Assembly (NCBI GenBank): GCA_016217925.1
Contig: JACRFK010000003.1
Location: 78,925-142,924 of the forward strand
Length of the DNA: 64,000 nt
From: Candidatus Kaiserbacteria bacterium
GTDB lineage: Bacteria; Patescibacteriota; Minisyncoccia; Phycocordibacterales; UBA2100
Direction of reading: 5' to 3'
Of the stretch, positions 14,984 through 21,283 are shown one piece after another (positions within the stretch are counted from its first letter, which is position 1; each line of letters opens with the position of its first letter). Under the pieces are notes generated by a model that made no database searches, was not told the DNA's origin, and was given only the letters and a program-made list of their open reading frames with translations. The translations under genes and the position numbers were made by a program.

Positions 14984-15727
14984 ATGGTCGAGTTTATTGG
15001 CGCATACTTTCAAAATCAATTTTTCTTCTACCTCATTGCGCTACTCGTATCGATATCTTCGAGCGCGTTCGGTGTAAGCGGAGCCGTGCTCATACCGCTC
15101 GCCGCTCTCTACTTCGGGCCGAAGGAGGCTGTTGCAATCACGACTCTCTATTTTTTGTTCCAAAATGTCACGAAGCTAGTATTTTTCAAGGAGCATATTA
15201 AGTGGGCGGTTGCATCGCGTATGACACTATGGGCGCTGCCCGGGGTGGCGTTAGGGGCGGCGCTGCTGGTGTACCTGCCTGCCGACCTCTTTGGGAAAAT
15301 TCTCGGTGTAGGCATGATTGCGTTCGTGCTCGGCGATGCGTTGAAACTTCGGTATCGCGGTGAGCAGGTCGCGGTTCCAGGGGCGATGCCTCTATGGGGA
15401 GTTCTCTACGGCATCTTTTCCGGCGCGTTGGGTAGCGGCAATCTGGTTAAAGGGCCACTCTTTTTGAGCATGGGCCTCCTTAAAGAGTCATACGTTGCGA
15501 CATATGCTGCCACATCACTCTTTATGAACATCCCCAAAATCGGCATTTATGCGTTTTCGGGCATTATTACGGTTACAATACTTATACAGTCCATACCCTT
15601 TCTTGTTATTGCGATAGTCGGGTCATGGACCGGAAAGAAGGTGCTCGGATACGTCACGAATGACATTTTTTATTACGCGGCCGTGATAGTATGTGTTGTG
15701 TCAGCATTGGGATTAATTCTGCGATAA
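14984..15727 (+). CDS. TauE/SafE (DUF81) family anion exporter-like membrane protein
   Basis: About 8 TM helices. Internal repeat with G-rich helix motifs typical of the TauE/SafE family. Confidence 0.65.
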   Translation: MVEFIGAYFQNQFFFYLIALLVSISSSAFGVSGAVLIPLAALYFGPKEAVAITTLYFLFQNVTKLVFFKEHIKWAVASRMTLWALPGVALGAALLVYLPADLFGKILGVGMIAFVLGDALKLRYRGEQVAVPGAMPLWGVLYGIFSGALGSGNLVKGPLFLSMGLLKESYVATYAATSLFMNIPKIGIYAFSGIITVTILIQSIPFLVIAIVGSWTGKKVLGYVTNDIFYYAAVIVCVVSALGLILR

Positions 15728-15742
15728 GCACTCATAGATATT

Positions 15743-17107
15743 ATGAAAATGCGAGAATTTCCTGTTCAAGAAAAGAGATCGGCCCTTCAGCAGGTCGAGG
15801 CGGCTCTCGGTCAGCCTTTATTCAAAGGAGAAGTTACCGATTCCTTCCTGGAAAATTCGACTGAGTATTTCAGAAAGTGGCACAAACCAAGATTACGAGT
15901 TGCATTGGAGACTTTGCACTTGCTCAAAGAATCGCAAGGCGGAGATGCATCGCCCGGGGTACAGCAGCGGCTTCGTACGCTGCGGGACGTAATGCGGGCG
16001 GGTCAGGACGTTGAGCCGCACACAAAAATCGAAATTGCAGGTCATCAAATTAAGGTCGTTTCATCGAATATCCGTAGAAATGATCTCTCCTGGGAGGGTC
16101 TCTCTCTTGTCGAGACCGGCGTCGGACATGAGGGCGACGTCGCATTGGCGGAAGTAGTGGATCCGACAGGTTCTACGAAGAAGATCGAAAACATATACGG
16201 GAGGGACGAGGGGCTCGTAAAGGGCGACAAGGTCTTGGTAGTCTTCGGTCATAGGCATACCGGCACGTCTGAGTACGGCGGAATTCCGGGTGACGGCTGG
16301 GATTTGAATGCCGAACGAGAAGTCGATCTTCTTGCTCACGGAGGCATCGTGGGGAAAGCAGAGTCCATACCCGCGCGAATGGGCCAGCGTGCGACTAAAC
16401 TGAGAGTTCTTGGCCTCCTTGCGAAGGGAGATACTCCGCTGAATCTGCGTGACCTCTTCCCTCCGTGGGAAAATGCATTGAATTCGTCCGCGCCCATCAT
16501 AGCCTTCTGCGGTACGGGCGCTGAAGTCGGGAAAACTACGACTGCGTCCGCGCTGATCAGAGAATTGAAATCCCGCGGACTGAAGGTCGCCGCGACAAAA
16601 GTGGCCGGGACGGGGCGTTACCGCGACCTGTTAGCGCTTCGAGATGCAGGCGCAGACACGTTCCATGATTTTCCCGAAGTCGGTCTGCCGTCTACGTACA
16701 CGACACCGGAGCGCTATATCCCAGCAATAAAGACTCTTATCAACAAATTAAACGAGGACGAGCCCGATATCATTGTCGCGGAGTTCGGCGGCGACATCAT
16801 AGAAGCAAACATCCCCTCCTTTTTCCAGGATGCCGAATTGCGGTCAGCGGTGAAAGCGATCATACATTCATCCGGCGATATCATGGGAATGGAAGGGTCG
16901 CTCGAACATTATCGCGAGTGGGGGTTGAGTAGCGTTCCGACCTTTCTTACGCAGCCGAAAGAGAGAAACCCCTTGGGAACCGAAACAAGGGTTAAGGAAC
17001 ACATAGGCCTTCCGCTCTTTGACTCGTTAAATACCGCACAAGTGAGCGACGTGGTAACTCAAATAGAAACTGCTATCCTCCAACAGGAAGCTGACAGAAA
17101 GGCGTGA
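15743..17107 (+). CDS. P-loop NTPase, DUF1611-like (Rossmann-like N-domain plus Walker-A C-domain)
   Basis: Walker A IIAFCGTGAEVGKTTTASALIRELKSRGLKVAATKVAGTG sits at about residue 255 of 454, resembling the DUF1611/BioD-like GTD.AVGK.TT...L...G...ATGQTG pattern. The function is unknown. Confidence 0.45.
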   Translation: MKMREFPVQEKRSALQQVEAALGQPLFKGEVTDSFLENSTEYFRKWHKPRLRVALETLHLLKESQGGDASPGVQQRLRTLRDVMRAGQDVEPHTKIEIAGHQIKVVSSNIRRNDLSWEGLSLVETGVGHEGDVALAEVVDPTGSTKKIENIYGRDEGLVKGDKVLVVFGHRHTGTSEYGGIPGDGWDLNAEREVDLLAHGGIVGKAESIPARMGQRATKLRVLGLLAKGDTPLNLRDLFPPWENALNSSAPIIAFCGTGAEVGKTTTASALIRELKSRGLKVAATKVAGTGRYRDLLALRDAGADTFHDFPEVGLPSTYTTPERYIPAIKTLINKLNEDEPDIIVAEFGGDIIEANIPSFFQDAELRSAVKAIIHSSGDIMGMEGSLEHYREWGLSSVPTFLTQPKERNPLGTETRVKEHIGLPLFDSLNTAQVSDVVTQIETAILQQEADRKA

Positions 17108-17109
17108 TT

Positions 17110-19466: not shown

Positions 19467-19472
19467 TAACAT

Positions 19473-20726
19473 CTAGCACATCGATGACAGGTATTGTTGC
19501 CACCGCGGCGCCCTGATGATGGGAAGTTGGATGGCGTCGGGCGCTCCGTGGACGATCTCCTCGGGGCGACCGGTCATCTTCATTCCGGCGATGCCACCCT
19601 GGGTTGCATAGACCGTCAGACGCAAGTAGTACGATCTGACGACCCGTTTGTTGCCGGCGAACACGACGACAGGAATTGGCTCTTGCGATACTTCCTGTTG
19701 TGCGACCCAAAGCGGGGTCCGTGCCCGCCCTTCCTCGGCGACCGTCTTCTGGAACGAAGGTTCGTTCGACTGCCGGACGATACCTTTGCTACCGGACGAA
19801 TGCGCGGATTTTAAGATGATCCGCTCACCCGTCCTCGGCCTCGAGAAGGTGCAGTCGGCGATGTTGCCGGTAAGAAGGGCCGTAGCAGGGATCGACCCGT
19901 TCACACGCTCTTGTGAAGCGAGGAACGGGAGGAACGCCTTTGACCCCAGGTACGCCTTGGGCGGGTACAGTGTCCTCACAGACCGGGCACGGTACTCCGC
20001 CAAAAGGTGCTCGCGGACCCCCGGATGGCGGTCCAGCGATTCCGGGATTGCCAGGAGGTGAAGCGGTCCGTCTCTGCACTTGAGCAGCGACGGATTATGT
20101 GCCGCCTCCTCTTCGCCCAGGAGCCTGACGGAGGTTCCCATCTTAGCAAGGAGCGAGGCGAGCGTTTCGTACGCTGCTCTGTAGCACCGCTCCTTCTCGG
20201 AAACGACGATAGTCCATTGCCGGTCGTTGCCGAGCGTCGCTGCGAGGTGCGATACCACGCAGTAGGCGGGCTCGTGTAGCCCGTACTTTGCAATCGCATC
20301 CACGAGCGCGATTACACCGAGCGGGCGGAGATTGTACGTGTCGACTTCGACGGCGTGCCAATTCCCCGCGGCATCCCGTACCATGTCGAGCTTGACGATG
20401 GGTGGGATGTCAGTCGCGCGGTCTTCCCCCGGCTGCAAGAGGCCGTGTGAGGCACTTCTTGCAAGTCGGAGAAGCTGCGACTGACGGTGGTCGATCCGCC
20501 GCAGACGCGGTAGGGCGGCGAGCGTAGTCTCGAGCTTCCCAACGGCCGCGTACAGCGCCGTCGATTGCTCGATCAGCTGCCGTTCTTCCCGCAGCACGTA
20601 GGCAGACGGGGTGAGGACGCAGGCGTGATGCTCGCGCCTCGCGGCAGTTCCCCAGTAGCCGATACTTGTCAGACAGTCTTCGACCTGCCTCGCGGTGAAG
20701 CCGAGGTCGAGCGTGTGCGAAGTCAT
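19473..20726 (-). CDS. Glutathionylspermidine-synthetase-like / circularly permuted ATP-grasp amide ligase
   Basis: RTLYPPKAYLGSKAFLPFLAS resembles the GSP-synth/YgiC motif (..SNKALLPLLW). The overall size of 417 aa fits. A family call at this level needs HHpred. Confidence 0.45.
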   Translation of the reverse strand: MTSHTLDLGFTARQVEDCLTSIGYWGTAARREHHACVLTPSAYVLREERQLIEQSTALYAAVGKLETTLAALPRLRRIDHRQSQLLRLARSASHGLLQPGEDRATDIPPIVKLDMVRDAAGNWHAVEVDTYNLRPLGVIALVDAIAKYGLHEPAYCVVSHLAATLGNDRQWTIVVSEKERCYRAAYETLASLLAKMGTSVRLLGEEEAAHNPSLLKCRDGPLHLLAIPESLDRHPGVREHLLAEYRARSVRTLYPPKAYLGSKAFLPFLASQERVNGSIPATALLTGNIADCTFSRPRTGERIILKSAHSSGSKGIVRQSNEPSFQKTVAEEGRARTPLWVAQQEVSQEPIPVVVFAGNKRVVRSYYLRLTVYATQGGIAGMKMTGRPEEIVHGAPDAIQLPIIRAPRWQQYLSSMC

Positions 20727-20830
20727 CGTGAGTTCCTTTCTCCGGGTGAGTTAAGCTGAAAAGATCTTGATGCCTCTCGGGCATCGCGCTACCTGTTTGC
20801 TGTGCAGGCAGTGCGGTGCTCGCGCGGTAT

Positions 20831-21283
20831 CTATTCAATAAGACCAAGCACCTCGTCCATCTCACCCACGGTTTTCCAGGGGTGGTCGGCTTCGATAGCG
20901 GGTTCGAGATCCGCGAATTTTCCGCGCTTGAGCCAGATAGTGCGCATTCCGCACTGGTTTCCGCAGCGGATTTCTTTGTGCAAGTGGTCGCCGACGACAT
21001 ACATCTGTTTGGGGTGTACGTCGGCCCGCCTCAAGATCTCGAAGAAGAGCGTCGGGTCTTTCCGCTCTACGAAGAACGATTCGGTAAAGAAGTCCTTGAC
21101 ACCCAACTCCTCAAGGAGCTGGGGCCGGCTTTCGTCGGCCTTTGAAACGAGATACAGGGGCACCGCACGGGCACGCAAAGTATCCAGTACCGCGCGAGCG
21201 CCCGACAGCATACCGCCCGTTTCCGGGTCGTAAATGGTCCTATTAAAATCGAATATCACGGCGATATCGCCTTTAGAGTTCAT
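20831..21283 (-). CDS. HAD-superfamily phosphatase (small, 150 aa)
   Basis: Motif I VIFDFNRTIYD, motif III K (VSKAD), motif IV VVGDHLHKEI. Confidence 0.7.
   Translation of the reverse strand: MNSKGDIAVIFDFNRTIYDPETGGMLSGARAVLDTLRARAVPLYLVSKADESRPQLLEELGVKDFFTESFFVERKDPTLFFEILRRADVHPKQMYVVGDHLHKEIRCGNQCGMRTIWLKRGKFADLEPAIEADHPWKTVGEMDEVLGLIE

Follow-up and report, generated by a model that had tools for sequence, protein, structure and literature searches.

A reduced PepM–Ppd gene block with a P-loop partner in a Candidatus Kaiserbacteria genome: a putative inserted member of a widespread phosphonoacetate-type cassette

The 64,000-nucleotide stretch of DNA analysed here (hereafter, the window) belongs to a 376-kb contig of a Candidatus Kaiserbacteria bacterium (JACRFK010000003.1) and contains, at positions 14984–19165, a compact block of four genes. 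Two of them are predicted to encode the entry enzymes of phosphonate biosynthesis, phosphoenolpyruvate (PEP) phosphomutase (PepM) and phosphonopyruvate decarboxylase (Ppd), and the other two a membrane protein of the TauE/SafE family and an uncharacterised P-loop protein. The four genes and the spacer bordering them are as follows.

14984–15727, plus strand: TauE/SafE-family membrane protein of 247 residues (PF01925), a putative anion exporter.
15743–17107, plus strand: uncharacterised P-loop protein of 454 residues, assigned to the SIMIBI class and resembling dethiobiotin synthetase and DUF1611; signature partner of PepM–Ppd cassettes.
17110–18249, minus strand: ppd, phosphonopyruvate decarboxylase of 379 residues (TIGR03297; thiamine pyrophosphate (TPP) motif GDG...NN).
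18236–19165, minus strand: pepM, PEP phosphomutase of 309 residues (TIGR02320; motif EDKRGLKQNS).
19166–19472, minus strand: intergenic spacer of 307 nt at the insertion junction, with a hairpin and the presumed pepM promoter.

The block is built from two convergent pairs, TauE preceding the P-loop gene by 15 nt on the plus strand and pepM overlapping ppd by 14 nt on the minus strand, with a further gap of 2 nt. PepM exceeds the cutoff of its equivalog model TIGR02320 (371.3 bits; cutoff, 319.55), its second-best model being phosphonopyruvate hydrolase with 140 bits against a cutoff of 374; it also matches PF13714 with 176 bits and carries, at residue 131, the sequence EDKRGLKQNS, an instance of the diagnostic motif EDKX5NS that sets PepM apart from the rest of the isocitrate-lyase superfamily (PMC12723261). 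Ppd likewise passes TIGR03297 (454.8 bits; cutoff, 312.5) with its TPP motif intact, and on the alpha and beta models of sulfopyruvate decarboxylase it reaches 81 and 92 bits, far under their cutoffs, which sets it apart from that enzyme. On these assignments, PepM and Ppd convert PEP to phosphonoacetaldehyde. The membrane protein scores 82 bits on PF01925 (cutoff, 32.6). A preliminary description of this DNA had already proposed a pepM–ppd pair with the P-loop and TauE proteins as non-canonical partners; all six of its open reading frames (ORFs) were recovered at exactly the same positions, the pair proved genuine, and the partnership is borne out by the conserved linkage described below.

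The P-loop protein belongs to a family covered by no Pfam or NCBIfam model, the DgcN model included. Its only Pfam matches are sub-threshold stretches of about 40 residues around the Walker-A motif (DUF1611, 23.6 bits over 39 residues, the cutoff being 25; CbiA, 25.6 bits), and the N-terminal domain of DUF1611 (PF07755 and PF17396) gave no match. The AlphaFold2 (AF2) model (pLDDT 91) suggests a helical N-terminal extension (residues 1–90), seen only in the long forms from the candidate phyla radiation (CPR), followed by a beta-rich domain (about 95–230) and a P-loop domain (about 245–454); only the last aligns structurally to 2g0t and 2obn. The sequence GTGAEVGKT at residue 257 has the same spacing and the same Glu as GTDTEVGKT of BioD, in line with a dethiobiotin-synthetase-like SIMIBI protein, and the extended loop GT-x-x-EVGKT is common to BioD and the DUF1611/DgcN structures (2g0t, 2obn, and 7xrj). 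The nucleotide-binding domain appears closest to dethiobiotin synthetase, the synthetase domain of CTP synthase, and DUF1611/DgcN, although only about 170–210 residues align with DUF1611/DgcN and BioD, at 11–19% identity, and the beta-rich domain stands in place of DUF1611_N. In the reactions of BioD and CTP synthase, a C–N bond is formed by phosphorylation of the oxygen of a carbamate or carbonyl, which nitrogen can then attack. DgcN is a D-glutamate N-acetyltransferase, its reaction being the N-acylation of an acidic amino acid, and holds the key position in a pathway acting on D-type acidic amino acids (PMC12363236). An exhaustive profile search of 1.84 billion representatives delimited the P-loop family to 387 clusters at 50% identity (E ≤ 1e-30), and the window protein keeps all of the 35 residues that are invariant in it.

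The genomic company kept by this family was surveyed with one genome per GTDB species, which gave 80 loci in which partners were counted within 8 kb. Around close P-loop homologues (39 loci; tblastn ≥160 bits), PepM and Ppd occur together in 30 of the 39 loci, an aldehyde dehydrogenase in 31, a protein of the aspartate/ornithine transcarbamylase (ATCase/OTCase) family in 20, and TauE in 10; of the nine close loci lacking PepM, five are short or sit at the edge of a contig. The PepM–Ppd linkage extends to 8 of 13 loci with intermediate homologues and to none of the 28 with distant DUF1611 homologues (<111 bits, mostly alphaproteobacterial). The P-loop family is almost always encoded beside PepM–Ppd across CPR, DPANN, Gammaproteobacteria, and Actinobacteria. 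The order of the genes varies, being PepM-Ppd-Aldedh-P-loop-OTCace in Peribacteraceae, Aldedh-TauE-P-loop-OTCace in Patescibacteria, and PepM-Ppd-P-loop-TauE-Aldedh-OTCace in a proteobacterial contig (Aldedh, aldehyde dehydrogenase; OTCace, the transcarbamylase). The carriers include Peregrinibacteria, Saccharibacteria, Roizmanbacteria, and Daviesbacteria among the CPR, and, outside it, uncultured Gammaproteobacteria, Pseudomonas sp. RIT288, P. fluorescens EK007-RG4, Streptomyces, Kitasatospora, Amycolatopsis, Nocardia, and a metagenome-assembled genome of Bdellovibrionales. Since at least 12 CPR/DPANN species representatives carry P-loop-linked phosphonate cassettes, the initial impression that such a locus is unusual in a reduced-genome bacterium was overstated. 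Cassette orthologues of the window genes are 43–60% identical in L006, L007, L020, L025, L089, and L090 (L-numbers denote individual loci), PepM is 49–60% identical to the PepM of related cassettes, and TauE genes of 43–51% identity adjoin the P-loop gene in L006/L009, L089, L007, and L025–L033.

Several loci of the survey are of interest in their own right. A contig of a Nanobdellati (DPANN) archaeon (L037:946–5075) has PepM-Ppd-Aldedh-P-loop, so that the cassette crosses the domain boundary. In Pseudomonas sp. RIT288 (L025:2704–14168), the cassette has a phage-type integrase on its upstream side and is followed by a TauD-type dioxygenase and by a methyltransferase in convergent orientation, which suggests a mobile island with a hydroxylated or methylated product; a separate TauD gene also stands beside the cassette in Kitasatospora. 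An M20 (ArgE/DapE-type) deacylase adjoins the cassette in two CPR loci, L090:1448–3818 and L005:3546–4559, accompanied in L090 by an amidohydrolase; these could be N-acyl-amino-acid hydrolases.

The best model for the cassette aldehyde dehydrogenases is that of phosphonoacetaldehyde dehydrogenase, PhnY (TIGR03250; 631 bits in L007, against a cutoff of 636, and 514 bits in L005), and their nearest database neighbours are given that name by several sources. The dehydrogenase being of the PhnY type where tested, the full cassette is assignable to the phosphonoacetate branch. The transcarbamylase genes are ATCases, reaching 274–307 bits on TIGR00670 (cutoff, 237), with that of L007 also passing NF008853. 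Aligned with solved ATCases, the L007 protein keeps the usual catalytic motifs STRTR, KGE, RH, HPxQ, TRxQ, and HPLPR, the last being directly followed by an insertion of five residues. This insertion, in the form HPLP[RI]D[SI]RPGxx[DE]L, makes up, together with the replacement of KGET by KGES, a signature common to Peregrinibacteria, other Patescibacteria, Gammaproteobacteria, Streptomyces, Nocardia, and Bdellovibrionales (L005, L006/L009, L007, L010–L014, L025–L033, L041, L047, L049, and L054); the third residue of HPxQ is variable in Gammaproteobacteria. Canonical-looking ATCases stand beside the P-loop gene in L019, L023, and L024. The distinct ATCase subfamily thus appears to be part of the cassette.

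It is worth comparing the cassette with known phosphonate systems. In Kitasatospora fiedleri DSM 114396, deletion of pepM-ppdAB within a phosphonate biosynthetic gene cluster (BGC; kfp01–kfp25, to appear in MIBiG as BGC0003187) abolishes phosphonate production, and a phosphonoacetate-derived product has been proposed (PMC12723261). That cluster contains Aldedh-pepM-ppdAB, followed by an ATP-grasp gene and by kfp06, a "hypothetical protein" of 349 residues. Our Kitasatospora locus L039 encodes TauD (285 residues), the P-loop protein (347), PpdB (174), PpdA (193), PepM (297), and an aldehyde dehydrogenase (492), matching the gene order and sizes of kfp07–kfp01, and by position and size kfp06 corresponds to the P-loop homologues. 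From this shared layout, the P-loop family would sit in a validated phosphonate cluster, in which its role was never assigned. The K. fiedleri cluster differs from the cassette in having 25 genes, among them genes for PAPS synthesis, two TauD enzymes, an aminotransferase, and a LuxR regulator, in lacking both TauE and ATCase, and in splitting Ppd into two subunits, whereas the window block has four genes only and no aldehyde dehydrogenase. With the pathways to O-phosphonoacetic acid serine and fosfazinomycin, both of the phosphonoacetate branch, the full cassette shares PepM, Ppd, and the PhnY-type dehydrogenase, the last of which is missing from the window. In the published inventory of branch points, the "PnAc" branch, into which the full cassette falls, accounts for roughly 6%, and neither a transcarbamylase nor a DUF1611/P-loop partner is mentioned in its text (Li & Horsman; PMC8942020). 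We found no description in the literature of a PepM-Ppd-PhnY-P-loop-ATCase cassette. What is new here is thus a conserved, cross-phylum pepM cassette outside that inventory, with a signature P-loop NTPase that has no curated family and often with a second ATCase of a distinctive kind. Mining of pepM neighbourhoods is the way in which phosphonate natural products, a proven source of antibiotics and herbicides, have been discovered.

The block interrupts a gene order conserved in CPR, namely DnaK-DnaJ-polyamine genes-HK-HAD-X-TrpRS-AspRS-ScpAB, in which HK is a sensor histidine kinase, HAD a small haloacid dehalogenase-type hydrolase, X a homologue of the 417-residue protein of the window (X417), and TrpRS and AspRS are the tryptophanyl- and aspartyl-tRNA synthetases. 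Three genes of this backbone lie on the pepM side of the block.

19473–20726, minus strand: X417, ATP-grasp ligase of 417 residues with the glutathione-synthetase/GspS/YgiC-YjfC fold as judged by Foldseek; backbone gene.
20831–21283, minus strand: small HAD hydrolase of 150 residues, above cutoff for three HAD Pfam families; backbone gene.
21398–23032, minus strand: sensor histidine kinase of 544 residues (HATPase_c, 97 bits); backbone gene.

On the other side, beyond position 14884, the window continues with TrpRS-AspRS-ScpA-ScpB, the same run as in L003 and L091. In L091, the gap between HK-HAD-X410 and TrpRS-AspRS-ScpA-ScpB measures no more than 78 nt and includes a terminator hairpin, and there are no phosphonate genes. 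Because X there directly precedes TrpRS, pepM, ppd, the P-loop gene, and the TauE gene are best explained as a block of about 4.4 kb inserted between X417 and TrpRS, with L091 as an empty-site relative; L003, also syntenic with the window, lacks the four phosphonate genes and has other cargo in the same slot. The same chromosomal position holds different cassette fragments in different CPR lineages. In the Saccharibacteria-labelled contig L024 (422–3040), the slot between HAD and TrpRS is occupied by a P-loop gene and a canonical ATCase instead of X417 and the four-gene block, its flanking HAD being 76% identical to that of the window. The GC content at third codon positions (GC3) of the four inserted genes (0.555–0.597) is lower than that of X417, HAD, TrpRS, and AspRS (0.69–0.75), but equally low values are found in other backbone genes (EamA, SpeD, and a deoxyhypusine-synthase-like, or DHS-like, gene), so that the contrast lends the insertion weak support. 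Searches for direct or inverted repeats or att sites flanking the block returned short chance matches only, and no mobility mechanism was identified in the window. The comparison indicates that ultra-small, reduced CPR genomes gain specialised-metabolite cassettes repeatedly at a defined chromosomal slot.

Taken together, we consider it reasonably probable, at about 60%, that the window block is a reduced, inserted member of the widespread phosphonoacetate-type cassette, in which the P-loop enzyme activates phosphonoacetate, and that X417, the HAD hydrolase, and the kinase are separate from it. In the predicted pathway of the full cassette, PEP would be converted by PepM to phosphonopyruvate, by Ppd to phosphonoacetaldehyde, and by PhnY to phosphonoacetate. 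By analogy to BioD and CTP synthase, ATP-dependent activation of the phosphonoacetate carboxylate as an acyl phosphate would follow, carried out by the P-loop enzyme for the formation of a C–N (or C–O) bond, with an amine capturing the acyl phosphate; the product, a small anion, would be exported through TauE. The substrate is suggested by a natural fusion protein of 939 residues (P0172), in which a P-loop module (41–390) is joined to an S-adenosylmethionine-dependent methyltransferase (433–545) and a TauD dioxygenase (677–918). In fosfazinomycin biosynthesis, phosphonoacetate is tailored by the methyltransferase FzmB and the alpha-ketoglutarate dioxygenase FzmG, enzymes of the types analogous to those in the fusion, which speaks for phosphonoacetate or one of its derivatives as the substrate of the P-loop enzyme. 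Two other family members, P0263 and P0289, have an N-terminal extension of 175 residues, which contains DUF6817 in P0263.

A number of observations weigh against this assignment. The window has the P-loop and TauE genes beside PepM–Ppd but neither PhnY nor ATCase; tblastn with the cassette proteins found no aldehyde dehydrogenase or ATCase in its 64 kb at E ≤ 0.1, and its spacers hold no pseudogene remnants of either at E ≤ 10 beyond noise. None of the best 120 PhnY-type proteins lies on the 376-kb contig, divergent dehydrogenases and other contigs being outside this comparison, and the low-coordinate end of the contig has housekeeping genes only. With no PhnY in the window or, among these best 120, on the contig, the P-loop enzyme may lack a local source of its proposed substrate. 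The block may also be mosaic as well as reduced, because its genes are nearest to different architectures: the P-loop and TauE proteins are closest (50–60% identity) to the Aldedh-TauE-P-loop(-ATCase) type (L006, L089, and L090), and PepM is closest (53–60%) to the P-loop-PepM-Ppd-Aldedh type (L016 and L020–L023). As regards the P-loop protein itself, its beta-rich middle domain found no structural match, and SIMIBI NTPases also include non-catalytic chaperones and switches such as HypB, UreG, and MinD. The window copy would have to rely on an unlinked aldehyde dehydrogenase or make a different or shorter product. Its own product is accordingly uncertain: phosphonoacetate may be supplied by an unlinked or divergent dehydrogenase, another phosphonate carboxylate may serve instead, or the block may be in the process of being lost.

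The last of these leads to the explanation, unlikely in our estimate, that the block is a decaying relic left of a full cassette after the loss of PhnY and ATCase, making phosphonoacetaldehyde only, or nothing useful. The absence of the two most frequent partners and the apparently mosaic origin would be accounted for in this way, as would the fact that the closest relatives of the P-loop protein (56–60% identity) keep an aldehyde dehydrogenase directly upstream, in the orders Aldedh-TauE-P-loop (L089) and Aldedh-P-loop (L090). The state of the genes, however, speaks against decay, all four ORFs being full length, PepM and Ppd retaining their motifs and scoring above the equivalog cutoffs, the P-loop protein retaining its whole set of invariant residues, and the overlap and short gaps being typical of maintained operons.

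It is improbable that the block serves an ordinary pathway of 2-aminoethylphosphonate (AEP), or the decoration of phosphonolipids or phosphonoglycans, through an unlinked PhnW-type transaminase and transferases, with the P-loop and TauE proteins as accessories. Of pepM neighbourhoods, 56% belong to AEP pathways (PMC8942020), and 64 kb of a genome of at least 376 kb were inspected here. Nevertheless, no Aminotran_5/PhnW gene accompanies pepM–ppd, and Pfam scans found no aminotransferase, iron-dependent alcohol dehydrogenase, or nucleotidyltransferase among the other window ORFs of at least 250 residues, these being housekeeping genes; the lack of an AEP transaminase, an iron-dependent alcohol dehydrogenase, and a cytidylyltransferase, remarked at first for the flanks, therefore holds for the entire window at this ORF size. 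In relatives, moreover, the P-loop/TauE pair is tied to cassettes with an aldehyde dehydrogenase, of the phosphonoacetate type, and not to those of the AEPT type.

The genes on the far side of the spacer had been taken in the preliminary description as pathway partners. X417 matches no Pfam or NCBIfam family at E ≤ 0.01 and no PDB sequence, but its AF2 model (pLDDT 89.6) bears out the suggestion that it is a glutathionylspermidine-synthetase-like ATP-grasp protein: Foldseek matched eukaryotic glutathione synthetase, E. coli YjfC/YgiC, GspS, and trypanothione synthetase with E values of 1e-13 to 1e-8 (1.4e-13 for 8fbz, 2.6e-12 for YjfC, 7uk6, and 1.9e-11 for GspS, 3o98; TM 0.55–0.65). The ATP-grasp fold is alike over the whole chain at 10–16% identity, and X417 differs from GspS in having no amidase domain. 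Its family consists of 14 clusters at 90% identity in 5.8 billion proteins, all from CPR. In four independent neighbourhoods, HK-HAD-X genes occur with no phosphonate gene: HAD-X-kinase in L001/L002, kinase-HAD-X in L003, an Orn/Arg decarboxylase immediately upstream of X and, as the second gene downstream, a pyruvoyl arginine decarboxylase in L004, and DnaK-DnaJ-EamA-ornithine decarboxylase-...-kinase-HAD-X in L091. A HAD of 63–78% identity lies directly upstream of X in L001, L003, and L091; the kinase is upstream of this pair in L003 and L091, and in L001 it lies downstream. Conversely, X417 is next to none of the 39 close P-loop homologues, and the conserved pairing of a ligase with pepM that characterises phosphonopeptide pathways of the rhizocticin/valinophos type was found in neither direction (X417 in 0 of 39 P-loop/pepM loci; pepM in 0 of 4 X417 neighbourhoods). 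X417, HAD, and the kinase are probably an independent module linked to polyamine metabolism; the polyamine genes in which the neighbourhoods in the window, L004, and L091 are rich make it plausible that X417, by analogy to GspS, is a new polyamine-conjugating ligase, representing a family of GspS-like ligases that is very rare and confined to CPR. Near X417 in the window are genes for DHS-like (23155–24255, plus strand), EamA transporter (24454–25371, minus strand), SpeD (25462–25854, minus strand), and saccharopine-dehydrogenase-like (44457–45884, plus strand) proteins.

The spacer between X417 and pepM is present as an untranslated gap, as first described, and a terminator-like hairpin (19442–19467; 11-bp stem, GAAA loop) directly follows the stop codon of X417, whose transcription it is predicted to terminate. 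A regulatory RNA proposed for this spacer was rejected, since there is no Rfam match at E ≤ 1, the fold is unremarkable (z = −1.2; 17 of 100 shuffled sequences fold at least as well), and the hairpin is the only clear feature. No sigma-70-like promoter was matched in positions 19166–19472, in which the pepM promoter presumably lies. HAD150, the small HAD of the window, was also considered as a cassette component, because HAD-P-loop-ATCase occurs in L024 and a small HAD follows the ATCase in L005; it was discarded as the main reading, the former adjacency reflecting the shared synteny HAD-slot-TrpRS and the latter protein being non-homologous at E ≤ 1e-6. That pepM–ppd, the ATP-grasp ligase, and HAD form one pathway to a phosphonate–amino acid or phosphonate–polyamine conjugate, with TauE as exporter and the kinase as regulator, is thus very improbable and appears largely refuted by synteny: its support from the common orientation and closeness of the genes, from the true GspS/glutathione-synthetase-type fold of X417, and from the ATP-grasp ligases known in phosphonate clusters (kfp05 adjoins the P-loop homologue in K. 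fiedleri) is outweighed by the phosphonate-free neighbourhoods of X417, its absence from the cassette loci, the empty site in L091, the intervening hairpin, and the lack of homology between the actinomycete ATP-grasp protein and X417 at E ≤ 1e-6.

Returning to the phosphonoacetate-type cassette in its full form, a phosphonoacetate-derived product is predicted, possibly an ATCase inhibitor resembling N-phosphonoacetyl-L-aspartate (PALA); aspartate chemistry is indicated by the divergent ATCase that recurs in the cassette. Among ATCase inhibitors, PALA is the classic one of the bisubstrate kind, and carbamoyl phosphate has an analogue in phosphonoacetamide; to our knowledge, PALA has been known only as a synthetic drug, and our literature search found neither a natural PALA nor a link between PepM and ATCase. 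We speculate, while regarding it as rather doubtful, that the cassette makes a natural mimic of carbamoyl phosphate or of the transition state that targets ATCase (PALA, a close analogue, or phosphonoacetamide), with the P-loop protein as a new ATP-dependent phosphonoacetate-activating ligase and the ATCase as either an immunity copy or an acyl-transferring enzyme. For the former role there is a precedent in the flavophos BGC, which carries its own lumazine synthase as a self-resistant target copy (bioRxiv 10.64898/2026.01.15.699783). Like it, the full cassette contains a second, divergent enzyme of primary metabolism, and by this analogy the cassette ATCase could be a resistant copy of the target; the window, by contrast, contains no ATCase, and the ATCase of the cassette could instead be biosynthetic. 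The flavophos cluster itself is unrelated to the P-loop cassette. In the biosynthetic role, the ATCase could move the phosphonoacetyl group from the acyl phosphate to aspartate, a possibility raised by its retention of the aspartate-binding TRxQ motif. Many CPR bacteria lack de novo pyrimidine synthesis; if the present bacterium is one of them, the missing ATCase is what the immunity reading would lead one to expect. A CPR organism without an ATCase of its own could keep the cassette while dispensing with the copy that confers immunity, and could direct the compound at competitors or at its own host. Should the product be a phosphonoacetyl-amino acid, nature would have pre-empted PALA, a textbook transition-state-analogue inhibitor, and the occurrence of the cassette in culturable Pseudomonas and Streptomyces/Kitasatospora makes this idea directly testable.

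Elsewhere in the window, the ORF at 48341–49225 (minus strand) combines an ATP-cone with an Mrr-type restriction-endonuclease catalytic domain, an unusual pairing, and that at 53414–54436 (minus strand) encodes a protein of 340 residues with a Sigma-70 region 4 and a HARE-HTH domain only. Four further ORFs of 385–490 residues, all on the minus strand (34683–36155, 36205–37362, 51884–53305, and 58631–59827), have no Pfam match at E ≤ 1e-5.

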